Shown: in pieces, positions 938 through 50,359 of the stretch
Layout of the letters: every line of letters begins with the position of its first letter
Numbering within the stretch: position 1 is the first letter of the stretch
Virus record (IMG/VR): IMGVR_UViG_3300025010_001927
Span: 1-54,262 of that record
Source: a virus
Taxonomy: Duplodnaviria > Caudoviricetes
Length of the DNA stretch: 54,262 nt
Strand: one strand, 5' to 3'
Notes under the pieces: generated by a model
Seen by the model: the letters and a program-made list of their open reading frames with translations, nothing else
What the model was told of the DNA's origin: nothing
The model's database searches: none
Made by a program: the position numbers and the translations under genes

Positions 938-943
938 AGGACA

Positions 944-2229: not shown

Positions 2230-2235
2230 AGCTGT

Positions 2236-5200: not shown

Positions 5201-6801
5201 AGCTCATCAATTTTGCCTGACCAATTGAAAAGTTTTAATCCTTTTTTAACCTTTGTATCTATTACTGTTCCATATAATTTTGCTCCTTCACCTCTTGGTG
5301 TAAGATCCAAGTAAACGCCCTTACCCATAACTCCTCCATAACCACTCGTTTTTCCAGAATCCGCCAAACTGAATCCTTCCTTTAAGATCTTTTCGGGAAC
5401 AGGAGTGCCATGTTTATATGTTTCTACACTTAGCTCAGTTGCTTCAGGTGCGCCTCCTTTTGAAGGAGTGACTGGTATCTTATTTTCCATAGCCACTGTC
5501 ACTAAATCAGCGTCAGTTAGTTCCGCAACTCGACCGAGTCTAGTTTTCGCTTCTTGTCCTCCAAGGGAGGTCACGATTTCGCTTCGTTGTGCATCGTTTA
5601 AGGTAGCTCGAATTGATAAACCTGCCGGCATATTACGAACAGCTCTGACAATAATGGCGCGTTTATCAGGGACATTTTTCCAGAGATCATAATAAAGGTC
5701 TTGAAATTCTTGCCTGAATGATTTTCCGGTGTAGCCAGTAGGATTGCTCACTTTTGCCAGGAATTCATAAGCTCTGTTGGCGGTGTTCCAAGCCTGGTTA
5801 AACTGTGTCATTTCCTGAGGTGTTTGATTAGCTTGAGCTGGGAATTGCTTAGTTATGCCGACTACTTTATTTTTCCAAGCTTGCTTAACCTGGTCTGCGG
5901 TTGCTTTTTCATTCACTCCTAAATATTCCAAGGCTTGGTTTTTGGTAATCTTCAACTGCTCACTAACCACTTTTTCGATTTGTTTCTCTATGGCTGGTTT
6001 GTTGGGAAGATACTTGGCTACTGCAAAATTGAGAGAGTGTAATCCCATCATAGCCGCCGTGTTTTTAAGAGCATCTTCGGTTGATTCACCCTTAATCAGA
6101 GATGTTACATATGTGGCCGGTCCAATGATCGCGGAGGATTTGAGAAAAGATGGTTTCATTCCGGCAATAGAGAAAGCTCCACCCAAGGCAAAATCACTAA
6201 CGAAGTCCTTTGTTCTTTGTTGTGCGTTTTTATATGATTCTTCTTTTTGAAGTTGTGTCAGTCCTGCAAAAGTAAGCCCATTTGATAACAGGCTAAATGT
6301 CTTTGGAGCTACTGTTGCGACTCTAGCAAGTAGAGGAACACCCTTGAGAGCTCCCTGGACCAGCCCGCCACCAACGACAAAGGTTCCAATAGTACCGAGG
6401 ACATTAAATTCAACCTCAGTCATATCTCCAGCCATTTTCTCAATATCGTTTGCATATTTGATTTCGGGATTCCACCAGCCAAAGGTAAGTGCTTGAGCCA
6501 AACCATCACCAGCACCCTTTAATGCTCCAACTGTTGCACTGGGGAGTCGTTCTAAAACATCTGTATCTCGGTCGCCTAAACCCAAGGTCTGTGCTGCTGC
6601 CTCAACATAGATACTTTTAAAGGGTTTGTACGAGCCACTGGTTGGACCTGGAATTGCAAATTCTGATTGCTCAGGAACCAATGGCTTAATCAAGTCGCCG
6701 AATTTTTGTTGAGCTTTCCCAAAAATACCACCGAGTGTTTGACTCGTATTCTGAATTGACGAGGTTATGTTTTTCTTGATTTGATTAAAAAAGTTATCCA
6801 T
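2236..6801 (-). CDS. Large internal virion/ejection polyvalent protein (J-like domain, ART-like domain, LPD38-like C-terminus)
   Basis: ~1520 aa; likely start MDNFF just after the upstream stop; HGT...GKGVY...GYDG...VIFDP segment; WDDIPQWAKDTYF; position between tail and lysis genes. Confidence 0.7.
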   Translation of the reverse strand: MDNFFNQIKKNITSSIQNTSQTLGGIFGKAQQKFGDLIKPLVPEQSEFAIPGPTSGSYKPFKSIYVEAAAQTLGLGDRDTDVLERLPSATVGALKGAGDGLAQALTFGWWNPEIKYANDIEKMAGDMTEVEFNVLGTIGTFVVGGGLVQGALKGVPLLARVATVAPKTFSLLSNGLTFAGLTQLQKEESYKNAQQRTKDFVSDFALGGAFSIAGMKPSFLKSSAIIGPATYVTSLIKGESTEDALKNTAAMMGLHSLNFAVAKYLPNKPAIEKQIEKVVSEQLKITKNQALEYLGVNEKATADQVKQAWKNKVVGITKQFPAQANQTPQEMTQFNQAWNTANRAYEFLAKVSNPTGYTGKSFRQEFQDLYYDLWKNVPDKRAIIVRAVRNMPAGLSIRATLNDAQRSEIVTSLGGQEAKTRLGRVAELTDADLVTVAMENKIPVTPSKGGAPEATELSVETYKHGTPVPEKILKEGFSLADSGKTSGYGGVMGKGVYLDLTPRGEGAKLYGTVIDTKVKKGLKLFNWSGKIDELYTEATKYGDPEKIREVLQKKGYDGVKGLNQMVIFDPQNVVPLVDGKPSTPLSTSFSVLDQKAAKAAEIRDKYRAPGETELEKLESTNKDVSQSTLIQKRRQGQIVASEHPRADEVKDPPPGSPPRPPQESSIESDPPPPDGSALSQIDAMVGKLSPAANLLDKAKKAIQVFPRLFTDRFAPIREFENKVSKLQGKLIDINSSPYIGARMYAGRFGIVEGSFRDLYTALQPVRKLRADFTRYVLAQRTAERAARGVENPLGVTQDTAEKALQELKAKVGDKAFQTFQQVGNGMQNWAVKAILEPMRDSGILSNKAFNAVVEKNKNWLPFHVLEYIPTLEEADKMAVGSETFSVSKQGVVSALEGTDKVIRDPFISVIDNLTKAVSLVERNKVALKLVELRKTHPDATKGLIRFLPNKENVPQDWESISVFIGGKVTRWAVPKELSEAMHAMSPAETGLMGKLVMMSSKAFKAGTTTLYFPFTLSNAVRDYQTASMVSKYGFNPAVWLSGFKDGFRSAFKWESKAYDEFMRNQGGYGSYIESTKGLAVASEQLFRPRWMERTKAVLNPFELIGNFSEAIELAPRLGIYKKALSKGATPLEAAFEARNVTVDFAKAGVEARLINMWVPFVNARWQGLLNVARVMKDNPIRTTARAIALTVLPGIATYFYNVMNHEELWDDIPQWAKDTYFIVIVGEDKDDEGNRVPKVVQIPKGDVGAIFFNPLMYAFEYVRKQEPQNLFKLGLEWMSQLAPVPFTRDGELSAQAFFSGALPPIVRTPVEIATNTNFFTGFPVVPRRLEKVAPSEQYDSRTPDLAITIGRALGVSPMKLTHAVYGLTGSLARELLSPADVLGLTMDRFYRTHGGEKQRIAWDIKYDAEVGYNTTRLQMKKLVEEGNLQEAQQMALNWNAEAEKLIPQVVPLLMKDDPKEAALFQSSITFNASDLQRLLKTTLPGGIPQETDGNIQKSPLIPLKPGASSGDNQSIKSLIYR

Positions 6802-6806
6802 ATGTT

Positions 6807-7874
6807 TTAAACCCCGGGTGTAAATAAGCGTCTTAAGAATCCCATTACTCCTGGCTGGTTTTTTAACTGCCACTCCTCATCAATAATTTGTGTGGCGTTT
6901 TTACCTTTATCTGTTGAGACTTCTGATAGGTTTGTTTTAAGCTGATCGGCCGTAAATCCCTGCTTCCACGCAGATCTGATTTCATTTCGCAGATCGCCTT
7001 CGTTTACGGTGGTTGTTTGTGACTTACTTGAAGGTTCCTCATAAAGGGTAGTTTTACCTGAGGTGGCATCGAAATATCCAACTACATTACCGAATGCATC
7101 TTTAACTTGTTGTTTGGCATAAGTTCCACCGCCATCACCAGTTCTCATTCTGCTGGTCTGGGAGTCATATAGTTTTAGCTCAAACTCTTTTTCCCAACGC
7201 TCATCTTCTTTGGCAGAGGATAATTCTGAAGATCGTATTTGATTGTAGGTATTAAGCAGTCCTCCTAAAAATTGCAGATCATATCGAAGATTATTGAGCT
7301 TGGCTTCTTTACCTTGCGTTTCAGATGTGACTTTTCGAGTGATTTCACCAAGACGAGCGTTGTAATCCTCGGCTTTTGCGTTTCGTTCTTCAATCAGATT
7401 GCCAATTTTAGCGTTAGCAAACCTTTGAACTTCTCCAGATTCTCCAGTTATCGTGGCCGCTGAATATCCTGGGTTTTTGCGAATCTTACTAACCGATTCA
7501 TCTCTGACATTTTTTTCTTGAGAGATGCTTGTATCCAGCGAGCTAATGGTATCTTTAAGCTTGCCAAGTTCCGCTTTACCATATTCTTCGTCATATCGCC
7601 GAGTCAGGTAGCCTTCAAGGTCTGAGGACAAGTCTTGAGTTTGTTTGTAGGTGTCCTGAAATTTAATATTGAGTGTCCCTGCATCAAAACCAAGAATGCT
7701 GTCAGAACCACCTATCTGGGAAAGACCCGCACTCAAGCTGGCAACAGACTGCTGTTTTCCTGGTTCATCGCCCTCAGTCCAGACATCCTTACCACCAGAA
7801 TCAGTACCCCACCAACGCAGGGCTTTGCTTTGATTAGGTTGCCAATACCATCCACCGTATTGTTTATCTGCCAT
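6807..7874 (-). CDS. Putative ejection/internal virion protein, coiled coil
   Basis: Helical composition; lies between tail genes and the large polyvalent protein. Confidence 0.5.
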   Translation of the reverse strand: MADKQYGGWYWQPNQSKALRWWGTDSGGKDVWTEGDEPGKQQSVASLSAGLSQIGGSDSILGFDAGTLNIKFQDTYKQTQDLSSDLEGYLTRRYDEEYGKAELGKLKDTISSLDTSISQEKNVRDESVSKIRKNPGYSAATITGESGEVQRFANAKIGNLIEERNAKAEDYNARLGEITRKVTSETQGKEAKLNNLRYDLQFLGGLLNTYNQIRSSELSSAKEDERWEKEFELKLYDSQTSRMRTGDGGGTYAKQQVKDAFGNVVGYFDATSGKTTLYEEPSSKSQTTTVNEGDLRNEIRSAWKQGFTADQLKTNLSEVSTDKGKNATQIIDEEWQLKNQPGVMGFLRRLFTPGV

Positions 7875-8107
7875 TAGGAGCCACCTCCTTTCTCTGGCTG
7901 TTTAACTTCAGTTATTTCTCCAGATATAACATCGAAGTTATATTCTTTTTGACTATCGAGACCGTATTTGAAAAACTTACCAAGAAGCCACACCACTAAC
8001 TGAGAATCAAGTGCTTGAATAGTCAGCTGATGCTGCTTAATCATTTGCTTTCTTAATTGCAGTTCTTTTAAATCGGACTTATCTAATTTAATTTGTTTTT
8101 TCGACAT
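7874..8107 (-). CDS. Small hypothetical protein (possible fibre-associated chaperone)
   Basis: AGAAAGGAGG RBS before ATG at 8107; tightly coupled to neighbours. Confidence 0.65.
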   Translation of the reverse strand: MSKKQIKLDKSDLKELQLRKQMIKQHQLTIQALDSQLVVWLLGKFFKYGLDSQKEYNFDVISGEITEVKQPEKGGGS

Positions 8108-9422
8108 AATCTGCGACCTCCTTTCTGCCAACTGTGGTGATAAATTCACGCCGTAGTTGGTCAACTTGCTCCTGGATTTTGGGACCGCCTTTTTTGGTGA
8201 TCTCGTTTATTCGATGTTCCAGGTAGCGCTCTTTGAAAGTCTCCTCGTCTTCATCATCACGTTTGATGGCAATTTCGCCTTCGGGTTCAAAATCAAAGTC
8301 AAAGAATTTATCGCGGACCGTCACTACCATGAAATCGAACTGAGCGGAAGATGTACCGCCTTGCAGTTCTTGCACGATAAGATGGTCGTTTGTTACTTCG
8401 ACAATGAAAAGTCCGTTGCAGTTTTGCTTGGAAGTCAGATATGCTGTGATGTTTCTGGGATCGCTGACCGCTTTGAAGTGGTCTGGGAAGTCAATTCGTG
8501 TCTGTCCGTTACTTAGGTTAGCTGTGCCTCTATGAATGAGGAGAACTTCTGCTGCCTCAATACCAGTATAGACCAATCTATGGCCCTTTTTCAATGGATG
8601 GGGAATGGAGAAGTTTGATGTGCCACTTTTATTAATATTGCCAGCCACATTAAGCGCTTCTAACCCTGACATCAAAATATTTATTTTTGTGAAGTATCCG
8701 GTCCCTCCATAGATTCGCTCGGCACTCATCTGCCCCGCAGAGATTTTTCCAGCATTCAAATCATTTACTTCTGCATCTGTAACTGCTAAGTCCTGAATTT
8801 TTGCAGTACTAATAGCGGCATTAGCAATGCGTGAGTTTCCGACCTCTAGTGCGCCGATCTTGGCATTGGAAATTGAAGCATCTGCAATTTCAGCGTTAGT
8901 TACGGCTGCATCCTGGATTTTAGCTGTGCTGATAGCTGCATTAGCAATTTTGGAATTGCCGACTTCTAAAGCACCAATCTTGGCGTTTGTGATAGCGGCA
9001 TCTGCAATCTCTGCATTTGTAATGGCGGCTGTTTGAATCTTTGCCGTTGAGATGGAAGCGTTTGCGATCTTGGCATTGGTGATTTGAGCCGTGCCAATGT
9101 GAGCAGTCAGAATAATGGCTTCGGCAATTTGAGCCGAGACGGTAATCACTGAGCCAGCTTTATAGACCTTGGCTGCTGTGATGGCATCGTCTTTAATTTT
9201 TTGAGTGGCCACTGCAGCATCAGCCAACTTTTGTTCGGTAACTGAGAAATCATCCAGCTCGGCATCGCCAACTGCTCCAGGTTTAATGTTGACGCTATCG
9301 ACAGTATTAGCACCTAGAGCCGGTGAATCAATACCATTATGCGTATGAGGCACCACTTCAGGAAACGGTTGATCTTCTATTTCCTTATTTTGTAGTATTT
9401 TTTTGACTTGTTTAGTTAGCAT
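8088..9422 (-). CDS. Tail fibre/spike with 10-aa beta repeats and C-terminal intramolecular-chaperone-like domain
   Basis: Repeats like AITNAKIAD; NFSIPHPL...IEAAEV...RG...IDFPDHF C-terminus. Confidence 0.7.
   Translation of the reverse strand: MLTKQVKKILQNKEIEDQPFPEVVPHTHNGIDSPALGANTVDSVNIKPGAVGDAELDDFSVTEQKLADAAVATQKIKDDAITAAKVYKAGSVITVSAQIAEAIILTAHIGTAQITNAKIANASISTAKIQTAAITNAEIADAAITNAKIGALEVGNSKIANAAISTAKIQDAAVTNAEIADASISNAKIGALEVGNSRIANAAISTAKIQDLAVTDAEVNDLNAGKISAGQMSAERIYGGTGYFTKINILMSGLEALNVAGNINKSGTSNFSIPHPLKKGHRLVYTGIEAAEVLLIHRGTANLSNGQTRIDFPDHFKAVSDPRNITAYLTSKQNCNGLFIVEVTNDHLIVQELQGGTSSAQFDFMVVTVRDKFFDFDFEPEGEIAIKRDDEDEETFKERYLEHRINEITKKGGPKIQEQVDQLRREFITTVGRKEVADYVEKTN
8791..9030. 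repeat. 120-bp tandem duplication within tail fibre
   Basis: Two 40-aa units AAITNAEIADAAITNAKIGALEVGNSKIANAAISTAKIQD / AAVTNAEIADASISNAKIGALEVGNSRIANAAISTAKIQD. Confidence 0.85.
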
Positions 9423-9426
9423 AAAT

Positions 9427-10872
9427 TTATAAGACTCCTAGTGGCTCAAAATAGGTTGTTGCCGAAATAATTTCAGGTGTATCGTTACCATTTGGATGCA
9501 AATTCATGGCCAATTCATATTCCTCTCCGGAACCAGGATCATCTTCATTACCACCAGTCTCGATTGAGAAAATAGCTTTAGATCTGCCTTCGTGATCAAA
9601 TAATTCGGAGCCATCTTGCATGGTTGCTTTCTGCCAATCAGTTTGTTGGTTAACTTTGAAGAAAACTTCAATACTGCAATCTCTAGGAAGGGGTTTCGTA
9701 ACCACCTTGATTTGACGAAAGCCTTTTTGGGTGAACGATTCACCACCGTCAAATACTAAACCTTCATAACGTGCTTCTGCTTTGTTGTCAGAATCAAGTA
9801 CATCCGTTCCAAATGTCGTACCGTCTTTCCAAGAGCAATAAATTCTGTCTTCGTACATTGTTAGGGCACCGATCAAAACGTTTTCGAATTTACCGTGAGA
9901 AGGGATGTATTCGAGATTGAGAGCATAAGGATCGTTTTTATTTAGTCGGCCGTAGGAATAGATTCCGCATTTATTGCTACCATTTACTCCTAATAAGGGG
10001 AGACCTCCCATGATGGTTACACCACCTGGATTGACCCAGGCAAATTCACCAGGGAGTTTTTTTATTCGTAAGAGGCTGGAAGTGTCCCAGAAGTACAGAC
10101 CGCCTCGTACTCCTGCCTGAATCATTAAGAACTCACCTTGCAGTAATGCGTTAATTCCGCGTTCAGCAACCATTCGCCTCTGGATCCAGGAGGGTTGGAT
10201 CTTATCCCAGGTCCAAAGCCAACCTTCTTCAACTTTGTCACCCTTAGTCGATCCAAAAACAACTAGTTGGTCTAAACCGAGTAAGCATTTATTTCGATGG
10301 CTTCTTGGTAAGTCAACAGCATCAAGGTTAAATCCACCCTCATAGTCCACCATTGCCAAGTCTTTGTTGTCACAAATAAGAAGCACTCCAAGTGCTTCAG
10401 ACATTGTGTGCCAAGACGGATCGCCATCGAGAGTTTGCCAGTTATGTTCAACATCAGTTGCCCAAGTACCGGAAAGTTTTATTCTGCTGACATTAGTTTC
10501 AGTTGCCCAATAAAGATAGGGTATGTAGTTATCACTGCCATCGTTGTTGGTATATTCAGCCGCTCCAGTTATTTTTCCGTTTGCATCGGCATAAACTAAT
10601 TCCCAAGCAGCGGCTCCACCTTGTTTCCGGTAAACATTTCCTGTGTCACCAAAGCCATATAGGTTTCCGTTTGAGGCTGGAATATAAAAAAGGATAAGAT
10701 CAGTTATGAAAGTGCTACTACCAAGATCTTCTTTTAAACGTTGATTGCACTTTAGCGTATTTTCTTCACCTCGAATGTTTAAGCCATAGCCAAAGCGAAA
10801 GGCTTCCCTTACACCTTGGTAGGGATCATCTGCTATTCCTCCTCTGTAACCTTGTATTCTGTATGCGTTCAT
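9427..10872 (-). CDS. Tail nozzle/stabilisation protein (beta-rich)
   Basis: Beta-propeller-like composition; follows adaptor; likely start MNAYR. Confidence 0.55.
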   Translation of the reverse strand: MNAYRIQGYRGGIADDPYQGVREAFRFGYGLNIRGEENTLKCNQRLKEDLGSSTFITDLILFYIPASNGNLYGFGDTGNVYRKQGGAAAWELVYADANGKITGAAEYTNNDGSDNYIPYLYWATETNVSRIKLSGTWATDVEHNWQTLDGDPSWHTMSEALGVLLICDNKDLAMVDYEGGFNLDAVDLPRSHRNKCLLGLDQLVVFGSTKGDKVEEGWLWTWDKIQPSWIQRRMVAERGINALLQGEFLMIQAGVRGGLYFWDTSSLLRIKKLPGEFAWVNPGGVTIMGGLPLLGVNGSNKCGIYSYGRLNKNDPYALNLEYIPSHGKFENVLIGALTMYEDRIYCSWKDGTTFGTDVLDSDNKAEARYEGLVFDGGESFTQKGFRQIKVVTKPLPRDCSIEVFFKVNQQTDWQKATMQDGSELFDHEGRSKAIFSIETGGNEDDPGSGEEYELAMNLHPNGNDTPEIISATTYFEPLGVL

Positions 10873-10876
10873 AGTT

Positions 10877-11581
10877 TTAACCCCATCGAGTACTTTTTGC
10901 TTGACCCACGAAGACACTCGATGGTTCTTCATCCTCGCGGTCTTTGGTTTGTTGTAATAGGGCGTGCGCTTCGATAACTTCCTTTTCTGCTTCGTTTTTC
11001 CTGCCTGGCTCTTTTGCTAGACATGTAGCCAGAGCTAATTTAAGAATGGGTTCGTCCATTTCCTCTGGAGTGATAGGTTCATCTGTTTCCTCAACTAGTC
11101 GGACAGGACGACGTTTATAAAAGAGGTCAATAATTTTGCCTGCAATTTCGACTACCGGATCTATAAAATATTGATCTCCAATAACGGCATACATTTTTTG
11201 CCATCGCCAATCGGTGTGAGCGGATGGGTGAACAATATCGAGAGAAGGTTGAAAGGTGGGAGCGATTTTGTTGTCAGACTTTCGACTCAAATATTGGTTT
11301 TCCATTGCTTTGTGGTACTCCTCACCATCTACAGAGAGAAAAACCATTCCACCAGGCTTAAAATCGAAAGGGAGGAAATAGGATTCTTTTCCCGAACCAT
11401 CAGGGTTTAGCTCAGTGAGTTGTGTGGCGTGCTTACTTAAGAATTTCCAGCGGGCGTAGTTACAAGCCCGCACAATTGCTTTATTAAGCCAGCGATCCTT
11501 ATCGGCATCCTTCCAAAAACCACTCACTTTGGAGGCTGTCATCCTTGCGTTTAAGTCTTGTCTAAATTCTTGTAATTGCAT
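10877..11581 (-). CDS. Head-tail adaptor protein
   Basis: DRWLNKA...WKFL...YFLPFDF...YKRRPVRL...P pattern typical of podoviral adaptors. Confidence 0.65.
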   Translation of the reverse strand: MQLQEFRQDLNARMTASKVSGFWKDADKDRWLNKAIVRACNYARWKFLSKHATQLTELNPDGSGKESYFLPFDFKPGGMVFLSVDGEEYHKAMENQYLSRKSDNKIAPTFQPSLDIVHPSAHTDWRWQKMYAVIGDQYFIDPVVEIAGKIIDLFYKRRPVRLVEETDEPITPEEMDEPILKLALATCLAKEPGRKNEAEKEVIEAHALLQQTKDREDEEPSSVFVGQAKSTRWG

Positions 11582-11583
11582 AA

Positions 11584-13248
11584 TTATTGGAGTTTTCCGG
11601 TTCTCCTGTACCGTTGGACGTAAGGTAATAACGCATTGCCTGGGCAGTCTGTTGCCGACTCAGGAACTTCTCCGTGTCCCAAAACTCGTTCCTTTGGAAT
11701 ACTTCTTTCAAGGCGTAAATCATCCAAAGCTTTTTGCAATGTTGTTAACTGAGCCGAAGTAGGAGTTTCACTGTTATGAAAGTTGCCACAGAGCACTACG
11801 CCCAAAGATCGATAGTTCATCTTGTTGCTGTCACAATGTGCTCCTATGACGTTGTCTTTTCTTCCCAGAATCAAGACCCCATCACCGTCAAGTTCACCAG
11901 CTATCCACTTGTGGTATCCGATATCGTCCCAACCAAAGCCTATGTGAGCTCTCTTAATTGTTTCAAAACGGGTATTATCTCGAGGGGTGGCGGAATGATG
12001 GACAATGATAAATTCGGGGTAGTTAGCCTTGTTATAGACTTCGGTATCCTTGTCTCGTGTGGTTACCCTTCGTTCTCGAGTCCATGCGATAACTAACCGA
12101 GGCGCGTATTTTCCTGAGTCTTGGTTATAGTCCCAAATCTTTTTTACACTTCCATGACCTGATTCATAGTTCTCTATAACAATGCCTATTTTGCTTGAGG
12201 TAAAACCTGGGCGATCCACAATTTCTTGAATGATCTCTTTTATTTCAGGGCTCTCATAGACACTTTCTGCACTCCAGTGGTCACCAATGAGGACACCAGC
12301 CTCTGCATGTCCCAAGTTCCACTGAATCTTGGCGTTGGTTTTGTTTCGTAGAGAGGGACGATTTGAACCATTGGAAGCAAAGACGGTTGCCTCATCTTCG
12401 GCAATACCTTTAATCAGGAGGTTTGGCATACCATTGTTTTGCTGAGAAGAGGTGACAAGTATTTTGGCTGAGATAATTTCTGCGCCAGGTGGAATGTTCA
12501 CCGGACTGAAGATGAGACCTAAATCATTTGCCGATTCATTTGGATCGTTACTGCCATCATCACCAAAGGTTGTGATGTTGTTTTGAAATCCACTAGGGTA
12601 CCAAGTCGCGTCATAATCTTCTTCACCATCACGGTCATTTCCTTGGATTAATCCAATAGTTATTTGTTCATGTAGCCCTTGCGGAAGGTAATAAATTTCG
12701 AGCTCTGCTTCGTAACCCTCACCTTTACTACTGTCGTAACAAGTTTTGGAGTTCTCAGCAGGACTTCCATCATCGGTGATAATAAAAACCATTGCGCTAC
12801 CTGGCTTCCAGCCGTTTTGAGCGAGGAGTTCTTCTACGACTAGATTCAAGTTTGGTGTTTGAACCCACTCATGGACTTCCCATTTTTTAATGATGTCCCA
12901 ATCAACAGCGTTTGTGGTTTTAGCTCGAGTCGATGGTCGATTTGAACCATCGGATTTAAATGGAGAGGGGTCTGGCTCTTTAACTCCTTGGATTTTTAAG
13001 TTTGTGGTGAAATCCGTATCATCAGTAAAAGCAGGTCTCAAGCGAAGTCTCGCTAGTAGGACCTTAGAAAATTTAGGGATATCAATCGCACGAAATCTAA
13101 AGGCTCCAGTTTGAACTCCTGAGAAGTTACCCAAAGTTATAACGCTCGAGACATTACCATCTTTATTCCAAGTAGTAGATCCAGCTTCTTTGCCGTCATC
13201 AGAGTTCTCTTGGATTGTTGCTTTGACTTTCAATACTTGGTTTGTCAT
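11584..13248 (-). CDS. Virion protein: two repeated beta domains plus C-terminal N-acetylmuramoyl-L-alanine amidase (Amidase_2)
   Basis: IIVHHSAT, DIGYH, GAH, LCGNF, GHGE...TDCPG zinc amidase motifs. Confidence 0.85.
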   Translation of the reverse strand: MTNQVLKVKATIQENSDDGKEAGSTTWNKDGNVSSVITLGNFSGVQTGAFRFRAIDIPKFSKVLLARLRLRPAFTDDTDFTTNLKIQGVKEPDPSPFKSDGSNRPSTRAKTTNAVDWDIIKKWEVHEWVQTPNLNLVVEELLAQNGWKPGSAMVFIITDDGSPAENSKTCYDSSKGEGYEAELEIYYLPQGLHEQITIGLIQGNDRDGEEDYDATWYPSGFQNNITTFGDDGSNDPNESANDLGLIFSPVNIPPGAEIISAKILVTSSQQNNGMPNLLIKGIAEDEATVFASNGSNRPSLRNKTNAKIQWNLGHAEAGVLIGDHWSAESVYESPEIKEIIQEIVDRPGFTSSKIGIVIENYESGHGSVKKIWDYNQDSGKYAPRLVIAWTRERRVTTRDKDTEVYNKANYPEFIIVHHSATPRDNTRFETIKRAHIGFGWDDIGYHKWIAGELDGDGVLILGRKDNVIGAHCDSNKMNYRSLGVVLCGNFHNSETPTSAQLTTLQKALDDLRLERSIPKERVLGHGEVPESATDCPGNALLPYVQRYRRTGKLQ

Positions 13249-13510
13249 AGGCGTTTTTGCTCCTGTGGGGAACATCTAGTTTGATGTTGATTCTGGCGTT
13301 CGCTCTTATTCCGACAAGTTTCATAATTCTTCGGACTGCAGCAATTGTTTCGCCACCTCTCCCTATTAGGGCTCCGGCATCTTTATCGTCCAATCGAACA
13401 GTTAACAAAACTCCCATTTCGTCAACCTTACGACTGATTACAACCTTTTCTGGTTTTTCAACTATGGCTTTAATAATTTGTTCTAGTAGTGCGACATCGC
13501 TTTCTTGCAT
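13199..13510 (-). CDS. khpA: KH-domain RNA-binding protein, KhpA/YlqC family
   Basis: IVEKPEKV...D.GALIGRGGETIAAVRRI with GxxG loop; AAGGAGGTG RBS before ATG at 13510. Confidence 0.85.
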   Translation of the reverse strand: MQESDVALLEQIIKAIVEKPEKVVISRKVDEMGVLLTVRLDDKDAGALIGRGGETIAAVRRIMKLVGIRANARINIKLDVPHRSKNAYDKPSIESQSNNPREL

Positions 13511-13534
13511 GGTTTTCACCTCCTTTTTCTTTAA

Positions 13535-14545
13535 TTAGGGAACATTTGGTTCTATGGTTAAGATCAGTTCGGCAGCGTTAGCTGCTCCACTGTTGAAATC
13601 CCAAATGTTTTCGTATTGATTTGCAGGACTACCATCGTCCTCAATGGTGAGAGCGAGTGCTTTACCTGTGAATTCCGCTTGTTGGATAAGCTCATTAATG
13701 ACTGAGGCTATATTTGGAGTCTGATACCAAGTGTTAAGCACCCAATCTTCTGCAATATCCCAATCAACTGCAGCTGTGGTTTTTGTCCTAGTTGATGGAC
13801 GGTCACTGCCGTCTCCCGCGAAGGTATTGGGACCGGCCTGTAAAATCCCTTTTACTTTTAGGGTTGGTCTTTTTGTTGAGTTAACAGCTGCTCTTACTCT
13901 GAGAACAGCATTAGTGATCTTTGCGTTATTGGGAATAAATGCTCGTAAGAAACGAAGCCCTACATCGCAACTTCCAGTGTTATCATTCCCAGCTGAAATT
14001 TGATTAGAGCCGAAGCCATTCGGATACCAACTGGTGTCGTAATCTTCTTCACCATCATCACTACCTCTTAAAACTTTAAGTTTTGTCATTATTGTTCGTT
14101 CAAGTTTTTGGTCCGAATAACCCTTCGTGGCGTAGGGATTCGCACCTGATGGGGCATCGGTGCCGGCAAGTGCATCTTTTTCATCGTTAGCAGGTAAGTT
14201 GGTATGGTCGTATGAACTTTCGTGAGATGCGATCGCTGCTGAAGCCGCGCCTGTAGGGTCGATGGCTATCCAGGCTGAACCATTAAAAGCGTAAATTTTG
14301 TTTTCATCTTCAATCCAACAAGCAAAGCCTTCGTTGGGTGTGGTGAATTTCCAAGTGGAACCGTTATATTCAGCAATCTTGCCTTCCTGACTTGCCCATG
14401 CATCACTTGCTGAAGCAGCGACAATATACCGATCACCTTCAGCAGGACTTCCTAGCGGTGTATTCAAATCCTTATCAAAGACAGAATCCTGCCAGTCGAG
14501 CATTTTTAGTTTTGTTGATGATGTTGCACCTCTGTATTTAGCCAT
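13535..14545 (-). CDS. Virion protein: DUF2793-like N-terminus plus one copy of the repeated beta domain
   Basis: PAEGDRYIVA...W...GKIA...W.F.P.EG...W motif. Confidence 0.75.
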   Translation of the reverse strand: MAKYRGATSSTKLKMLDWQDSVFDKDLNTPLGSPAEGDRYIVAASASDAWASQEGKIAEYNGSTWKFTTPNEGFACWIEDENKIYAFNGSAWIAIDPTGAASAAIASHESSYDHTNLPANDEKDALAGTDAPSGANPYATKGYSDQKLERTIMTKLKVLRGSDDGEEDYDTSWYPNGFGSNQISAGNDNTGSCDVGLRFLRAFIPNNAKITNAVLRVRAAVNSTKRPTLKVKGILQAGPNTFAGDGSDRPSTRTKTTAAVDWDIAEDWVLNTWYQTPNIASVINELIQQAEFTGKALALTIEDDGSPANQYENIWDFNSGAANAAELILTIEPNVP

Positions 14546-14549
14546 AGAT

Positions 14550-14846
14550 TTACTTTTCAGTTATAAGTTCGACAACTTGTCCAGCTACGCCTGAGCTAAC
14601 CACAATTTGTTCAGTTCCTTTAATGCGCAGTGAGATACTGTCTCCTGCGTTATCCAAAATAAAAGGAGTAGCCTTGCTGTCATCGTCGTTATGAGCCACG
14701 TTTACAGGCGCAGTGTTGTCTGAGCTGCTTTTAATAACGACTTCACAGCCCTCACCAACTTTGATATTTGGTAACGGATACCAGGTATCAGCATCGGTCA
14801 GAGTTACCTGAGCCGTAGTAAATGTCGGTCGACTATCTGTTGACAT
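14550..14846 (-). CDS. Small beta-rich structural protein
   Basis: Intact ORF in late operon. Confidence 0.6.
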   Translation of the reverse strand: MSTDSRPTFTTAQVTLTDADTWYPLPNIKVGEGCEVVIKSSSDNTAPVNVAHNDDDSKATPFILDNAGDSISLRIKGTEQIVVSSGVAGQVVELITEK

Positions 14847-14856
14847 ATTTTTCTGT

Positions 14857-15465
14857 TTAAAACTTCGGCTGCTCAGCCGTACTTCTAACTCCAGTTACTG
14901 CTTTTGGTTGACTAGCTCCTTCTTCTGAGCCATTCAGCTCCACTTCTTTTTTTCGAAGTGCAGCTTCTCTAGTTGCTAGTTCTTTCTCGCGTTCCTCAAG
15001 AGTTTTAAACTTATCTTGATATATCTGATCCACGCTTTTTCCACCTCTCACATCGGCTGTTTCAACTTTTCTAAACACACTACCGAAGTTGGGATGAGCA
15101 TCGAGATACTCGATCTCATCAGGTTTACTGGTTTTATAAATACCCTCGTGGAATTGGATGTAGGTTCCTCGAATAATCAGGACCTTGCCTCCGATCTCTT
15201 TTAAGTAAGAGGGTGACATTACCAACCTGAGTTCGTAATAGCGGGAGATATACACCACTTCTTTAGTTGCCGTTGATTTGGTTGTTTTGGGCTGTTGTGC
15301 TTGTGTTAGAGTTGATCCATCACTACCTTCTTGATCCTGAGCTTGCTTGATACGAGCAACTAACTCATCTCTTTTGCCGTCTTTTGAGACACCCAATAAC
15401 TTGGCAACGCTCCAAAGCTCTGCCATCGACATTTCATCTAATGATTTTGCTGTTCTTTCAGTCAT
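14857..15465 (-). CDS. Hypothetical protein with Rho-N/SAP-like helix-extension-helix N-terminus
   Basis: LDEMSMAELWSVAKLLGVSKDGKRDELVARI; GAGGTG RBS. Confidence 0.65.
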   Translation of the reverse strand: MTERTAKSLDEMSMAELWSVAKLLGVSKDGKRDELVARIKQAQDQEGSDGSTLTQAQQPKTTKSTATKEVVYISRYYELRLVMSPSYLKEIGGKVLIIRGTYIQFHEGIYKTSKPDEIEYLDAHPNFGSVFRKVETADVRGGKSVDQIYQDKFKTLEEREKELATREAALRKKEVELNGSEEGASQPKAVTGVRSTAEQPKF

Positions 15466-15633
15466 ATTTTTCACCTCGCTTTCTTTTGTTTCTGATTTAA
15501 TTAATAACCTCAGATTGGGTTGAAGGGGTGATAACGCTCACCCCTTCTTAGGCGACTACACTGAGTAAGAAAGTGTGTAGTGACTTTCGTTGTTCGTCGT
15601 TTGTATTCATAGATTTCAGTAATGTGCTTAGGG

Positions 15634-16803
15634 TTAGAGAGCGCCGATGCTCATAATGGCGTGGCGTTTTTCTTGTTCCATTTGCAATCCACATTCGGTC
15701 AAATACTCGTCGACCTGACTGTCTTCACCTGGGTTTTGACGATTAGTCAAAAGTTTAGTGTCACGATTTGTGAGATGGCGGTACGTTAGGGCTTCCATAT
15801 CAAGTCCTACGGCATAGTTTCCGTAAGTGGACCCGATCAAGAGTGGATGCTTAATGATGTGCAGTGTGCCGTGTGGTGAATCGTACGTTACGATTCTCAA
15901 GCCATATGCTTTAGTCGGATTGACTACTTGCAGCTTCCCTTTAGCCCAACCGTTGATCATCGAAACGACTGCGGCTGAAGCAAAGAGATACTTTTCGGTA
16001 TTACCGTGTGCAAAGAGACTTTCAAGCCATGCGTCGAATTCTGATTCTGTGTCAACGTTAGCTGTAGCGTATGTAGCAATTCTTCCTAGAATTCCATTCG
16101 TAAACCGCTTTGGGTGAGTACCCGACGTGATAAGACCTTTTTTACCAAAGATAAACGTGCGTTCGATATCAAGATAATGTTCAATACCTTTTTTGCGCCT
16201 TTGATAATCAAAGTCATTTTCCTTGACCCATCCTTGAGTGTTCTTAGCAGTTTCAGTGATACCTACCGGAGTTCTGAAGATTTGACAGTAGTTTGATACT
16301 TCGGCAATGGTTGTAGATTTGATGTCTCGTAAACCTGCGCCTTCCTCATTGGCATTACCAATGAGCCAGACGTCTCCGACTGCTGATGCAGCCGAGCCTG
16401 TTGCTCCACCAAGTTCTGGACCAACTGTCACCGTATCTCCGTCGACAATAGCTGTTACTTGGAATATCCACTTTTGAGCGGACACCAAAATAATATCGCC
16501 TACCTGAAGATACTGAGCTTGTCCTGTGATGGTTAAGTTACCACCGTCCGGATCAACCGTGTTAGAACCTGTAAGCTGTCTTTTCCCAAACTCGTCTTCA
16601 AACCACTTAAACTCTGGGTCTGTGCTTTCTTTCTTCTTTAAAGCTTCACCCTCGCCGGTCGCTGGATCCTTACCAGCGTTAGTTAATATCGCCATTAATG
16701 GATATCGGTTGACATCCAATAGCGATACAACGTCCGACACGTCATACTTACGGGTTGCCCCTAAGTTACCTGAACCTCTGATTCCTGTTGCTGATGCTGG
16801 CAT
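15634..16803 (-). CDS. Major capsid protein (SU10/DUF5309-like)
   Basis: FKWFED, NYCQIFRTPV.IT.T, IE..FIFG, YDSPHG motifs; strong RBS. Confidence 0.88.
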   Translation of the reverse strand: MPASATGIRGSGNLGATRKYDVSDVVSLLDVNRYPLMAILTNAGKDPATGEGEALKKKESTDPEFKWFEDEFGKRQLTGSNTVDPDGGNLTITGQAQYLQVGDIILVSAQKWIFQVTAIVDGDTVTVGPELGGATGSAASAVGDVWLIGNANEEGAGLRDIKSTTIAEVSNYCQIFRTPVGITETAKNTQGWVKENDFDYQRRKKGIEHYLDIERTFIFGKKGLITSGTHPKRFTNGILGRIATYATANVDTESEFDAWLESLFAHGNTEKYLFASAAVVSMINGWAKGKLQVVNPTKAYGLRIVTYDSPHGTLHIIKHPLLIGSTYGNYAVGLDMEALTYRHLTNRDTKLLTNRQNPGEDSQVDEYLTECGLQMEQEKRHAIMSIGAL

Positions 16804-16843
16804 AATATTTTTTCACCTCCCTTCTTTTTAATAACGCAGGAGG

Positions 16844-17722
16844 TTAGATTCCTAACCCTCCTAAGGGGCTTTTTGACCCGCTTCCGGCGAGGGCTTTCTG
16901 GATGCGTTTTGTCTCGGCATCCGAGCCATCGGGCTGAGTCGGAGCGCCCGCTCCACTCTCAACTTGAGCCTTTGCTTTTTTAAGTCGGCTCTTTTCTTCA
17001 TCTGATAATTCTTCAGACTCATCTTTAGTGTCGGCATCATCTTTTGCTTTATGCTTGCCGAGAAAAGCATCTACCTGTACACATGCTTCTTTTAAGGAGA
17101 CTGTCGTGCCTTTGGCACTGGCAGCATCCATAATGGTTTGCACCATCTTGCGGTAGTCAGGATCCTGAAGCGGATGTTCTTTCTTGGCTTCAGCGATTTC
17201 TTTTCTGACCGACTCACGAATTTTCTCTTGAACATCAATCGTCTTTTTGACACCTTCATCGATACGGGATATAACCCATTTAGCAAAATCAGAGGGGGTC
17301 ATCTTCTGAAGTTCTTCTGCTGTTGGAAGATCGAGTTTTTCTCCATCGTCTTTTGGCTTTCCACTTTCAGCATCGTCCTTTTTGTCAGGATCTTTGTTCT
17401 CTAGAGCGGCAACACGACTTTCTAAAGTTTCGTATTCTTTAATTACTTCTTCTCGGCTTTTTCCGTTCCAGCGATCTTTGTTCTCTTTATCTTTGCCCTT
17501 ATCTTTCGAATCTTTATTGGCGTTGTCTTCCGAGCCTTCTTCATTTGGCTTTTCTTCTTTATCGGCTTCCGGTTTTGTTTCCTTACCATCAGGCTTATCA
17601 GCAGGTGCGGCACCATTTTTATTCTTTTGATCTTCACCAGAGGAATCCTCCCCGTCATCTAGTGCATCGAGTAGGGCTCGTAGTTCTTCTTGTTCTTTTT
17701 GTTTTAGCTGTTCTTCGTCCAT
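16844..17722 (-). CDS. Scaffolding protein
   Basis: Highly charged, low complexity, immediately upstream of capsid. Confidence 0.75.
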   Translation of the reverse strand: MDEEQLKQKEQEELRALLDALDDGEDSSGEDQKNKNGAAPADKPDGKETKPEADKEEKPNEEGSEDNANKDSKDKGKDKENKDRWNGKSREEVIKEYETLESRVAALENKDPDKKDDAESGKPKDDGEKLDLPTAEELQKMTPSDFAKWVISRIDEGVKKTIDVQEKIRESVRKEIAEAKKEHPLQDPDYRKMVQTIMDAASAKGTTVSLKEACVQVDAFLGKHKAKDDADTKDESEELSDEEKSRLKKAKAQVESGAGAPTQPDGSDAETKRIQKALAGSGSKSPLGGLGI

Positions 17723-17726
17723 ATGT

Positions 17727-17981
17727 TTATTCCTTCCTCAGGTTTTGAGCTGTCTCATCTCGTTCTTTAATAACGCTGTCGACCATGCTCAAAACTTTCC
17801 TGTATGCCTTGATCATTTGTTTATGCTCAAGGTCTTCTTCTATCGGACAGTCTAATAAATCCTTACTTTCAATCTCTAGCTCCTGATCGATCAGGCTTTT
17901 GATAATGTTCCAGCCTTCGGTTTGGGTCATTTCCCAAACTGCTCGGCCTCGATCAAGTTTTTCGTCAATATTGTCTGTCAT
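17727..17981 (-). CDS. Small head-module protein
   Basis: 84 aa helical, TEGW motif, typical position before scaffold. Confidence 0.6.
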   Translation of the reverse strand: MTDNIDEKLDRGRAVWEMTQTEGWNIIKSLIDQELEIESKDLLDCPIEEDLEHKQMIKAYRKVLSMVDSVIKERDETAQNLRKE

Positions 17982-17985
17982 AGTT

Positions 17986-18312
17986 TTATAAATTCGGATT
18001 GGTCGGAGTTTCTTCTTCCGGTTTGTCCTGGTCCTCTAACTTCATGTTTTTCTTTTGTGCACCCAATCCACCAAGAGGACGAACTTCGTTTTCCTTCATG
18101 TCCTGCAATGTAGCGATTAAGCTATCGAGTACTTCCACAAACGTGGAGTTGCCTTGAAAAAATGTGTTGCGTGCGACAGTAAATAACGAATCAACCTTGT
18201 CCCACATTTGAGCCTCATTTGGTTGAGCTGATGTGCCAGCTTCCGGTGCTTTGCCTACAGGTTTTTGATCCTGTGTTTGCGCGTTTGGTTGTTTGTTTTG
18301 ATTTGGTTCCAT
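17986..18312 (-). CDS. Hypothetical protein
   Basis: Likely start MEPNQ; shares PLGGLG with scaffold C-terminus. Confidence 0.55.
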   Translation of the reverse strand: MEPNQNKQPNAQTQDQKPVGKAPEAGTSAQPNEAQMWDKVDSLFTVARNTFFQGNSTFVEVLDSLIATLQDMKENEVRPLGGLGAQKKNMKLEDQDKPEEETPTNPNL

Positions 18313-18320
18313 AGCTTTCC

Positions 18321-18719
18321 TTAGGTAATTGGGAACGGCCTTTGTGCGTCCCACAATAATGTTCCGACATATGCCTCTGCTGAAGGTGCTGATCCAGCAG
18401 TAATGGTTACCACTGCTCGTAGATATCGTTTCTTGCGTTCAATTTGCACCTTGTAGCCTGTATCTTCAGCAACAGTGATTTCCTCTCCACCTTTGGCTAC
18501 AGTCACTCCAGAGGCAAAGGTTGAAGAGTCTGATTCTTCGATCTTCACTTTGGTGGAGGTTTGGTCGCCAAGATCTCCGATGGCAATGTCAATAAGACCG
18601 GAGTCGTAGGCTGGTCGGCCGGAGAGAAATGTATCGACTGCCGCACCTGCTGTAGTTTCAGTGATCACTCCGATAGGGAGAAGAGTAGCTGGATGTATGT
18701 TCTGATTAAGTGTTTTCAT
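18321..18719 (-). CDS. Putative capsid decoration/cement protein
   Basis: Beta-rich, KIEESD...KRYLRAVVT pattern. Confidence 0.55.
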   Translation of the reverse strand: MKTLNQNIHPATLLPIGVITETTAGAAVDTFLSGRPAYDSGLIDIAIGDLGDQTSTKVKIEESDSSTFASGVTVAKGGEEITVAEDTGYKVQIERKKRYLRAVVTITAGSAPSAEAYVGTLLWDAQRPFPIT

Positions 18720-18754: not shown

Positions 18755-18831
18755 AAAAAGGGCTGCAACTTCTAAACACACGCATAGTTGGCGTATATTC
18801 AAAAGTCACAGCCCCGATTGTTTCGTTAGGC
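18755..18831 (-). promoter_or_regulatory. Leader attenuator 1: conserved motif plus 24-bp terminator hairpin
   Basis: GCCTAACGAAACAATCG then GGGCTG...CAGCCC stem (six G.U pairs) and TTTTT. Confidence 0.8.
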
Positions 18832-18850: not shown

Positions 18851-18914
18851 AGTCTAGTAAAGGGAAGAATGGTTCGCAATAAACTTTGTGGTTATTTGTG
18901 TTTACTTATGTTAC
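18851..18914 (-). promoter_or_regulatory. Promoter for head operon with upstream tandem repeats
   Basis: TTGCGA-17-TAGACT preceded by ACATAAGT/ACACAAAT/CACAAAGT repeats. Confidence 0.65.
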
Positions 18915-24774: not shown

Positions 24775-24775
24775 G

Positions 24776-25072: not shown

Positions 25073-26962
25073 TTATGCTTGGAGCATTTTTCCTAAACCT
25101 GGAATTTTGCCAATAAGCTCACGTATTTTGTTTTTATTGGCAACTGGTGATGAACTACCCGCTTCGGGCGGTAAACTGTCGTCAGAAGGCGCTACAGGGG
25201 CTACGGGCTCCCCATTTGATGGGGTTATGATTGTTTCTTCTTGCTTTTGCATTAATTCAGGACCAAGTAGGATATCGACATACTGATCAAGGTCTAGCTC
25301 CTCTAAAATCATTTTCTGGAGGGCTCGCTTGCGAATCAACCAGTGTTTTACATCTGCTGGGTTGTTTTGATCAGGCTTGTCTTGGGCGATGAGTTTATCA
25401 TACAAGAGTAGTATTTGATTAAGTCTGGCTTGTTTATCCGGTGGGATTACGGGTTCTACTTCGACAATAGCATCAACCTGAATCTTCTTGTCTTCAGACT
25501 TAAATTCTTTGAAGTCGACAATGTTGCCAACAATGCGGTACAGCTTGTCTTCACCGATAAACTCTCTGTTTAACTGAATTAGGATATTAGCAACCGTAGT
25601 AAGGGCATTGGATATGTTCTGGGCGTTCATGCTTAATCTAAGGTTGCTCTGACCCAAAAGCATTGCCACTTTCCCAAGAGGTTCGCTTGAGGATTGTGGT
25701 AACCCTTGCAAATACTCACCGAGGGCAAGCGTTCTGGAAATTTCATCACGCAGAAGTCTGTCCTCATTAACACCCATAAGGCTAATATCCGGCGGTCGCT
25801 CAATCACCACATCATCCATTTTTCTGAGTTCCCAAACTGCTCCAGGGGAGAAAATGATATCGTTTTTGGTAATGCCAGTATCCTTACGAATCTTAACCAC
25901 GGGATCGAGCATTAAGATCACGTCGTCCATACGTTGGTTGCGAAGATCAGCAATTTCCATGATGGTACTCTCAACTGGTTCAACATGACCGGTAGCCCAA
26001 AACTCCCACAGCAATGACATGTCAGGAAGGTCTACAAAAATATGGCCGTTATTAACATCAAGATAAGGATTCTCGTCATCCCTGATGACCACCTCACCAT
26101 TGGCAATAACTATCAGTTGATCTTCTTCATAGTCCCAACATTCCCAAAGTTCAAGCTGCTTTTCCTGGTCGTTTTTGACTGGGAGTACTTTTTGTTCGCC
26201 AGTCTCGGCTTTTCTGATATCACCATCAATTTGAGACATCTTTTTGGTATTGATTTCGTAGCGTTCTTTCTTCCAGTCTTCAACTATCTTCGGCTCGCAA
26301 AACTCAAGATTTTTATAAATTTTGTTGTCGCCTCGATTTTCTTCCTCTTTGGAGATTTTTTCTTTTGCCTTGACGATTCTATGAATAAGCCAAGGGCAGC
26401 CATCCTGCAAGTCCTCTGTCTCAGGAGCTGGGAGAAAGTCCCACAAATCACAAAGGATCATGGTGGGGTCGTCATAAATAGTCTTAACTGTTCCATCAGA
26501 TCTTTTTCGGTTTATTACCTTCCAGGCTAGTTTTGCAATTCCATTGCCATACAAAACTGAAGATTCAATCCAATTGGGCAGTTTTCTGGCTAGTTCTATG
26601 ATGTCAAAGTCATAATTAACCAGGTCGCTCCAGGATCCCAGAGCAGTTGACTCAATATCTGTTTTATCCCTCGGGATGACACGAGTCTTTCGTTTAGCTG
26701 TGGCAAGGCGGGAAACTACAGTCTTAACGATCTCGAATGCAATAGGAGGCATTAAGCGAGTGTTGTACGCATAGTTTTGTTTGTGTTGGTACGCTCGGTA
26801 GAGACGATACATCCGTAGCCACTTAGCTTGATAAGGCTCACGAAACTCTTTTGCACGCTTAAAACGAGCTTTCCACTTGGTTAGGAGCTCCGTATCACGC
26901 TCTGAAGGTTGATACCTAACTGTTGATGTGATTTTTACTTCTTTTACTTCTGGTTTTGGCAT
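25073..26962 (-). CDS. Portal protein (P22/SU10-like)
   Basis: Size, YGNGIAKLAW, ENPY, RNQRMD, PGAVW motifs. Confidence 0.85.
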   Translation of the reverse strand: MPKPEVKEVKITSTVRYQPSERDTELLTKWKARFKRAKEFREPYQAKWLRMYRLYRAYQHKQNYAYNTRLMPPIAFEIVKTVVSRLATAKRKTRVIPRDKTDIESTALGSWSDLVNYDFDIIELARKLPNWIESSVLYGNGIAKLAWKVINRKRSDGTVKTIYDDPTMILCDLWDFLPAPETEDLQDGCPWLIHRIVKAKEKISKEEENRGDNKIYKNLEFCEPKIVEDWKKERYEINTKKMSQIDGDIRKAETGEQKVLPVKNDQEKQLELWECWDYEEDQLIVIANGEVVIRDDENPYLDVNNGHIFVDLPDMSLLWEFWATGHVEPVESTIMEIADLRNQRMDDVILMLDPVVKIRKDTGITKNDIIFSPGAVWELRKMDDVVIERPPDISLMGVNEDRLLRDEISRTLALGEYLQGLPQSSSEPLGKVAMLLGQSNLRLSMNAQNISNALTTVANILIQLNREFIGEDKLYRIVGNIVDFKEFKSEDKKIQVDAIVEVEPVIPPDKQARLNQILLLYDKLIAQDKPDQNNPADVKHWLIRKRALQKMILEELDLDQYVDILLGPELMQKQEETIITPSNGEPVAPVAPSDDSLPPEAGSSSPVANKNKIRELIGKIPGLGKMLQA

Positions 26963-26978: not shown

Positions 26979-27047
26979 AAAAATGGGGCTTAGGTTCGTC
27001 TACTTCTGGAAAATAGAGAAACCTAAGCCCCGATAGATTCGTTAGGC
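26979..27047 (-). promoter_or_regulatory. Leader attenuator 2: same motif plus terminator hairpin upstream of portal
   Basis: GCCTAACGAATCTATCG then GGGGCTTAGGTT...AACCTAAGCCCC and ATTTTTG. Confidence 0.8.
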
Positions 27048-27134
27048 GGTTAATTTATACTTTTAGGCTATAAAATTAAGGGGAGAAATGCTAGTTCGTT
27101 ACTATCAGAAGCTGTAAGTTTGATGGGTAATTCA

Positions 27135-50262: not shown

Positions 50263-50272
50263 CTTTAATAAT

Positions 50273-50336
50273 AAAGTACAGATTATTGTAATTTACCTCA
50301 ATAAACTTTATGATGATTTATGTTCATTTGTGTAAA
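50273..50336 (-). promoter_or_regulatory. Early lytic promoter
   Basis: TTGAGG-17-TACTTT; near-copy of 52267-52330. Confidence 0.7.
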
Positions 50337-50359
50337 CAATTCTCATTATAGTATGATTA

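Follow-up and report, generated by a model that had tools for sequence, protein, structure and literature searches.

Bulged RNA hairpins fused to terminators upstream of the portal and head genes of a viral genome, with a DUF2292-like protein as candidate antiterminator

The 54,262-nt stretch of DNA analyzed here (the window) is a whole virus record, described as a temperate phage of ultra-small bacteria, in which a bulged RNA hairpin (the core) shares its 3' strand with an intrinsic terminator both before the head/tail/lysis genes and before the portal gene. We propose, with a probability of about 0.68, that the late genes are timed by local antitermination, similar to that of LicT at its RAT targets, and that the factor is a 73-aa DUF2292-like protein encoded directly behind terL. 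From features of the sequence we infer promoter activity, termination, protein binding, the direction of the effect and its timing. Attenuation of the protein-dependent type is already known; what is new here is the core variant, its joint loss with the candidate gene, and the swap of the regulator in relatives.

The right end of the window carries a serine recombinase gene and a tRNA-Gly gene, followed inward by the predicted immunity region (Table 1), whose HTH repressor and M78 peptidase we take to be an ImmR/ImmA-like pair. From there, a leftward run closes with terS, terL and the 73-aa gene, after which come cargo, the portal gene, further cargo and the head/tail/lysis genes; from gene spacing and strand we infer that the last of these form a single operon. 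A prophage in a 0.82-Mb single-contig genome, from the phylum of a Saccharibacteria bin, holds a portal protein 71% identical to that of the window, which supports a Patescibacteria host for the phage; among deposited phages, the portal matches at only about 20%.

Several other genes were recognized along the window. The tRNA-Gly(TCC) gene (54163-54237, minus strand) overlaps the 3' end of the recombinase gene and is a possible attachment site, and a DUF3800 gene (51291-51926) adjoins the repressor pair; an Rfam scan of the window found no DUF3800 RNA motif. The cargo behind the DUF2292-like gene (39314-41766) contains genes for an ECF sigma factor, for a probable anti-sigma factor and for a YceG/MltG-like protein, and YceG-like genes turn up repeatedly in the same slot of relatives. 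A type III restriction-modification-like pair and an HTH-HNH gene lie in the terminase-portal cargo (29564-36551). The portal-to-head interval contains plus-strand cargo (18869-23128 and 23191-24828) with genes for a PadR regulator, an LMW phosphatase/arsenate-reductase-like protein, a P-type ATPase, DsrE, PAP2 and a HEPN domain; the PadR call at 18869 shares sequence with the -35 hexamer predicted for leader 1.

Table 1. Features of the window discussed in the text.
Feature	Position	Strand	Remarks
Head/tail/lysis gene run behind leader 1	689..18719	-	First gene 132 aa
M23 peptidase	1162-2229	-	Inside head/tail/lysis run
Amidase	11584-13275	-	Inside head/tail/lysis run
KhpA-like KH-domain gene	13199-13519	-	Inside head/tail/lysis run
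SU10-type major capsid	15634-16803	-	Inside head/tail/lysis run
Intrinsic terminator 1	18755..18815	-	Stem 18814-18791/18783-18760: 24 unbroken pairs, six G.U; 7-nt loop; then UUUUU
Core hairpin, copy 1	18810..18831	-	4-bp lower stem, 2-nt AA bulge, 3-bp upper stem, 5-nt loop; 3' strand common to terminator
Predicted sigma-70-type promoter, leader 1	18851..18879	-	-35 TTGCGA 18879-18874, 17 nt, -10 TAGACT 18856-18851; start near 18844
Portal gene behind leader 2	25073..26962	-	PF23899, E 3.5e-6, under cut-off
Intrinsic terminator 2	26979..27031	-	Stem 27031-26985: 21 pairs with one mismatch; then AUUUUUG (A + U5)
Core hairpin, copy 2	27026..27047	-	Same core, before portal
Predicted promoter, leader 2	27065..27094	-	-10 TAGCCT 27070-27065, weak -35; 6/12 matches
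73-aa DUF2292-like protein, candidate antiterminator	43188..43409	-	Start overlaps terL stop
Terminase large and small subunit genes	43393..45502	-	Directly upstream of candidate factor gene
Immunity region	49975..51300	.	Predicted role
HTH gene, head of terminase/DUF2292 run	49975-50262	leftward	
HTH repressor	50415-50873	rightward	Within immunity region
M78 peptidase	50848-51300	rightward	Within immunity region

An earlier, sequence-only reading had reported a motif present in two copies on the minus strand, and this was borne out: the copies are identical at 20 of 22 positions, and none of 100 shuffles gave a single match at three or fewer mismatches. A search model, which works largely as a profile of the sequence, found no third copy in the window. 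If only the 5' portion of leader 1 is folded, the result is the bulged hairpin GCCU[AA]CGA-loop-UCG-GGGC, and GGGGC is both the 3' strand of the core and the base of the terminator. The motif had been described as CUAA plus a mini-hairpin, which is present, but this description was incomplete, since GCCU also pairs with the GGGC that starts the terminator; likewise, CUAA as a conserved element holds true in the window but gives way to CUGA in 29 of the 43 distinct cores of relatives. The reported make-up of terminator 1 agreed with our counts, and its restriction to the minus strand with fold z-scores of -5.9 on the minus strand as compared to -2.2 on the plus strand. The position of the copies before the head/tail operon and the portal was also confirmed (first gene at 18719, portal ATG at 26962), and the two sites are the most stable pair among the 13 hairpin-plus-U sites listed on the minus strand.

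Each core lies about 20 nt downstream of a predicted sigma-70-like promoter. That of leader 1 has 8 of 12 consensus matches and relatives have one at the same position, while relatives carry TTGACA or TTGCAT at the place of the -35 of leader 2. A TAnnnT hexamer ends 18-30 nt (mostly 19-22) upstream of the core and a TTGACA-like hexamer is found 16-18 nt further up, with a mean promoter score of 8.7 out of 12 as compared to 2.1 in shuffles (n = 76), where shuffles without any TAnnnT count as -1; 44 of the 76 score at least 9. Since the promoter is located just upstream of the core, the terminator at each site does not sit midway along a transcript but closes a short leader that begins at its own promoter. 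L028, a compact relative in which the portal adjoins the head genes, still has both leaders. On the minus strand from 50867 to 31693, no hairpin-plus-U site of -14 kcal/mol or below was found among those listed, which fits a single transcript that starts in the immunity region and runs past terL and the DUF2292-like gene.

The core and terminator folds are mutually exclusive via the common GGGGC(U). In fold computations, the terminator is favored over the core by 10.6 kcal/mol at site 1 and 8.9 kcal/mol at site 2, and over 74 distinct leaders its computed advantage has a median of 9.55 kcal/mol (range 5.9-18.3). If the core pairs are enforced, the rest of the terminator still forms and stops 5-6 nt short of the U-tract. 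An extended basal stem reaching the transcript start was rejected as a general feature, as it beats 95% of shuffles in only 17 of the 74 leaders.

Relatives were collected by the portal protein and not by the motif. After removal of 8 loci without an upstream region and 22 duplicates, 113 portal loci were reduced to 83 non-redundant ones. The core precedes the portal in 72 of the 75 loci with a portal identity of at least 55%, and in none of the 8 below 55%. The three misses are L247, which has a core variant with U-A in place of U.G, L212, in which the promoter, the core and the 5' arm are deleted, and L248, which is described below. In total, 97 candidates with the pattern and a hairpin were obtained, of which 77 were retained on the basis of their terminator strength, their U-tract and the gene that follows; these represent 43 distinct cores, all with six paired positions and one 2-nt bulge (GA in 29, AA in 14). 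Four of the six pairs are partly fixed by the search pattern; the outer two are free on the 5' side and form in 43 of 43 cores. At the apex, the cores have anything between a 5-nt loop and a covarying hairpin branch of 25 nt, with neither the sequence nor the length of the loop conserved. The two half-sites are separated by 7 to 30 nt.

An alignment of 53 rows, chosen from 69, was used to assess covariation, with counts that are inflated by related rows. The lower helix is paired in 100% of the rows, with G-C changed to A-U in three rows and C-G to U-A in one; it thus has two doubly changed pairs, and its being mostly invariant accounts for the few compensatory changes. The extra hairpin is 93.8% paired, with five doubly changed pairs. 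The covariation score was reached by none of 500 shuffles, and no slid register came close. A larger form of the core, with conserved GGCG and CUAA junction strands, is present in 24 of the 53 rows.

Wider pattern scans were less specific. An exact-pattern scan of viral sequences gave 20 loci among the matches listed, of which L014 and L017 have no terminator context. Two further scans were discarded as mostly chance: a loose scan of genome contigs (at least 120 rows) and a long-form viral scan, in which only 2 of 80 loci were true sites, both from the known set. No Rfam family matched the motif in the window and the relatives scanned, the best cis-regulatory hit being L20_leader on L036 (22.2 bits, as compared to a gathering threshold of 58.7). 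Other RNA elements were seen near the portal of some relatives. In the cargo slot, next to the portal promoter on its upstream side, LOOT RNA (RF03000) is present at L223:2551-2675 (79 bits) and L211:308-437 (76 bits). A second structured element with a second terminator occupies the interval between the gated terminator and the portal in many distant relatives, namely L200:130-295, L248, L203-L206, L226 and L228-L243; it had no Rfam match in the relatives scanned, and in L200 and L203 it has two overlapping long pairings, suggesting a pseudoknot or alternative folds.

The product of 43188-43409, which the sequence-only reading had named as the candidate factor, travels with the motif, and its family adjoins a related hairpin-terminator in Bacillota, as detailed below. 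It matches PF10055 with 20.5 bits (E 3.6e-4), under the Pfam cut-off of 22, and 9 of 12 proteins of the motif clade match this family, 3 of them above the cut-off. A profile of the candidate family retrieves 157 proteins at E <=0.001; among the best 60 of these, 55 match PF10055, including 31 above the cut-off. The Atlas neighbors of the candidate are also DUF2292 (scores 0.83-0.85), which we regard as a lead only. By these matches, the protein is a distant DUF2292 member. In all motif-bearing loci that reach the end of terL, the next gene overlaps the terL stop and encodes 57-82 aa, and the window protein and 14 distinct relatives share a helix, a G-[RK]-hydrophobic strand and a beta hairpin. 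A single-chain fold model of weak confidence (pLDDT 63.5) also contains a helix and a beta hairpin; it matches no RNA-binding fold (best VIA Z 2.5), and the search by sequence gave no convincing solved relative. Natural tandem DUF2292 fusions with a G-x-x-G-x-G-I tail (L283-L287; P0038, P0039, P0042 and others) hint at a dimer as the working unit of DUF2292.

We compared the distribution of the gene and the motif in 35 whole viral records. The DUF2292-like gene is present in 18 and the RNA model matches 22, and the co-occurrence that had been suggested as a check was found, in that all 18 gene-bearing records are among the 22. The four motif-positive records without the gene are fragments ending at most 3 kb upstream of the portal. 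Among the eight records that are at least 90% complete, five have both the gene and the motif and three have neither. This linkage test is partly circular, as both profiles were built largely from the records tested, and in a quick portal tree with 29 rows the linkage comes down to about two events, namely a single origin and a single joint loss. A weak RNA model hit in G253 (E 0.0024) was dismissed, as it lies at a gene end without the core. In L248 (G006; portal at 9644), which nests inside the motif clade in the quick tree, the gene behind terL is cut to 16 codons and the 5' strand of the core is now an A-rich stretch, with an intact promoter, terminator, terS, terL and portal. The terminator can thus persist without the switch; either another factor reads through it in L248, or it leaks, or the phage is dying.

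The prophage G299, the regulator swap in the sister group and the loci in Bacillota are lines of evidence more independent than the linkage in the 35 records. G299, the prophage in the 0.82-Mb genome, was held out from all models and has terL, an overlapping DUF2292-like gene (E 4.5e-24) and both leaders; in the fragmentary assembly G386, a motif copy was found with no protein match. In the sister loci L254-L257, a zinc ribbon occupies the slot behind terL, and a promoter, hairpins with YACG loops and a terminator precede the portal. The hairpins are in tandem in three of the four by script, with one found in L255. A fifth locus, L326, which was retrieved by the zinc ribbon alone, has the same YACG-hairpin leader. 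The zinc ribbon of L254 has a Com-like label (PHROG 13819, E 3.5e-4). The zinc ribbon with twin YACG hairpins overlapping a terminator is apparently a second, undescribed attenuator system in the same slot. The gene and leader are at L254:2003-2330 and L326:4001-4314, and downstream lies either the portal gene or one encoding 583 aa. In L252, L258, L259, L261 and G239, where terL and the portal are direct neighbors, neither a gene in this slot nor a leader was seen. Outside the clade, L260:3409-3822 and G336 C168:883-1160 (portals 41% and 46%) have a DUF2292-like gene followed by a promoter, a leader and a terminator; their leaders have an overlapping pairing unlike the core, and neither model scores them.

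DUF2292/YezD was identified in 31 of the 201 Bacillota genomes sampled, and we examined 31 loci, namely L263 and one best match each from 30 of these 31 genomes. In these loci, GCUGAC-stem-GAGGC is fused to a terminator soon after the DUF2292 gene, and the genes downstream are presumably mostly for sulfur assimilation; in L289, a core of this type precedes a phage-like regulator gene. A related core with a terminator lies within 200 nt after DUF2292 in 14 of the 31 loci; among 747 control windows, 22 matched, and three of these matches look like additional genuine copies. The descriptor used was written after seeing the cores, and in the window it produces 23 chance rows. At E <=10, phage model R2 detects no Bacillota core, and the Bacillota cores have an extra A opposite the bulge, so that homology of the phage and Bacillota cores rests on an after-the-fact descriptor. 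SAM or cobalamin riboswitches lie directly upstream of DUF2292 and its hairpin-terminator at L262:1713-1821, L268:1235-1351 and L292:1170-1341, a two-tier control. In Pseudomonas, oscA precedes cysP (PMC3596284).

Among known systems, the BglG/SacY/LicT family is the closest in layout. RAT is described in PMC3575810 as a 29-nt antiterminator hairpin with two asymmetric internal loops, which overlaps the terminator by 5-9 nt in the targets of LicT and SacY. The window shares with LicT/RAT a weak hairpin in the 5' leader that overlaps an intrinsic terminator (by 5-6 nt here), a variable apical loop, a conserved interrupted stem and a default OFF state; unlike RAT, it has one 2-nt bulge, in 43 of 43 cores. 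The 73-aa candidate has no CAT or PRD domains, and no Pfam match to either was found among the 57 window proteins. Also unlike BglG/LicT, it would be switched by synthesis after induction and not by PTS phosphorylation, and its targets are virion genes. The system of the window is therefore not a member of this family. Local antitermination by an RNA-binding protein also recalls ANTAR, and the zinc-ribbon leaders of the sister group resemble ANTAR sites in having two small hairpins with conserved loops (PMC3369931). The window motif differs in being a single bulged hairpin with a variable loop. With no ANTAR domain among the 57 window proteins, the system is not of the ANTAR type either.

In phage lambda, N/nut and Q delay long operons via promoter-proximal terminators and act processively, through RNA polymerase. 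The same is described for conAn of the mobile element pLS20 (PMC8191782). The phage leaders share the delay at promoter-proximal terminators, but each terminator has its own overlapping RNA site. A likeness in the protein is to the Bacillota DUF2292/YezD units, which belong to the same, distant family and have a similar Y-U-R-A-C strand over a U.G pair and a 3' strand common to the terminator. There, the core has an A opposite GA and lies in cis behind the gene, before sulfur genes, whereas the phage core has a plain bulge; the phage cores are 16 and 24 kb from the gene, so that the factor must act in trans. Com of phage Mu is a zinc-finger RNA-binding activator of translation. The Com-like zinc ribbon is an alternative occupant of the slot behind terL in relatives, not in the window, and the leaders of the sister group end in terminators, whereas Com activates translation. 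The literature covered, including passages of PMC5737381 and PMC11109978 and leaving their large supplements and most subscription papers outside its scope, contained no description of the motif, nor was it matched in one supplement file of PMC8632094.

Other readings of the two sites were weighed against antitermination by the DUF2292-like protein. That the same switch is worked by another binder, either from the host or the KhpA-like KH protein of the phage, is unlikely. KH domains bind short motifs such as CUAAC, a KhpA-like gene is present in 12 of the 35 records and lies upstream of the terminase in other relatives, and L248 has KhpA and no DUF2292; however, KhpA is also found in three motif-negative records (G006, G007 and G010) and so was rejected as the factor for want of tracking of the motif across the 35 records, CUGA and not CUAA is present in 29 of the 43 cores, and the khpA gene of the window itself sits behind terminator 1. 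The ECF sigma factor was also rejected, being absent from the covered terL-portal interval of L028, L191, L247, L036, L210, L032, L232 and L035, and the promoters are sigma-70-like. Its gene (41263-41766) qualifies the earlier statement that the core genome has no late sigma factor, which still stands insofar as the gene lies in the variable cargo region. The near-invariant core, with its larger form in 24 of 53 rows and conserved junction strands, could also suit a small ligand-sensing riboswitch that acts as an ON switch over the terminator, with DUF2292 as a mere passenger. We consider this very unlikely, as the minimal form is only a 22-nt bulged hairpin with no Rfam riboswitch match, related cores are found ahead of sulfur genes as well as phage genes, and the core is lost and swapped along with a protein gene.

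A promoter-proximal site, a long downstream operon and a small basic protein would also fit a loading site for processive antitermination of the lambda N/nut or conAn kind, with DUF2292 modifying RNA polymerase over the 18-kb late run. This is compatible with the preferred reading of a DUF2292-like antiterminator but is itself quite improbable: the loop is conserved neither in length nor in sequence, each terminator has its own overlapping core copy, no equally strong hairpin-plus-U site was found in the late run among those listed, and local competition suffices to explain read-through. N-, Q-, ArpU-, NusG- or conAn-like genes gave no match in the Pfam scan of the 57 window proteins or in NCBIfam and PHROG scans of 10 and 20 proteins, a result to be read in the light of the divergence of such small proteins. 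The mechanism looks local and RAT-like rather than processive like that of lambda N or Q. The fixed distance to the promoter, and the terminator kept without a core in L248, might instead mean that the motif acts as DNA, through a Q/AlpA-like or other DNA-binding regulator, or that the terminators are leaky insulators with a dispensable conserved flank. The compensatory and G.U-keeping changes, the variable spacing of the half-sites (7 to 30 nt) and the conservation of the core across portals that are only 55-60% identical make this a very improbable reading.

The earlier suggestion that a factor acting in trans blocks termination at the motif gains support from the layout, the mutually exclusive and covarying folds, and a candidate that tracks the motif. 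According to our proposal, each site would be a short attenuator, in which a housekeeping promoter of the sigma-70 type is followed by about 75-90 nt of leader and by an intrinsic terminator that would keep the portal and head/tail/lysis genes silent in the lysogen. Without the factor, the terminator would zip to its base and transcription would stop. Upon induction, the leftward run (HTH, replication, methylases, terS, terL) would be transcribed, and its last conserved gene would yield the DUF2292-like protein. By holding the bulged core, an antiterminator hairpin into which the lowest 5-6 nt of the terminator's 5' arm would be drawn, the protein would leave the remaining hairpin 5-6 nt short of the U-tract, and the polymerase would read on. 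Because the terminator is the default, and binding to the folded core can do no more than weaken it, we expect the factor to act as an activator. Loss of the repressor would thus be followed by the terminase run, DUF2292, and the portal and virion genes, an order set by local RNA switching and similar to the delay of the late genes by lambda Q. With separately gated promoters, cargo could be inserted between the genes for terminase, portal and head while late expression stays intact.

A broader reading, to which we give even odds, is that a small RNA-binding protein coupled to terL and its cognate attenuators form a plug-in timing module that is swapped as a unit, with DUF2292 and the bulged hairpin in one version and a Com-like zinc ribbon and twin YACG hairpins in the other. 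DUF2292/YezD proteins would then be widespread minimal antiterminators, with a core of about 40 aa, used in the sulfur regulons of bacteria and the late control of phages alike, and antitermination would extend to Com-like zinc ribbons. If the proposal is true, DUF2292/YezD gains a function, and the late genes of a phage would be timed without a processive antiterminator, a late sigma factor or an activator. The 73-aa protein and 87-nt leader are small enough for direct testing and might be put to use as an orthogonal ON switch of compact size. This would be among the first concrete mechanisms of gene control for phages of uncultured ultra-small bacteria.
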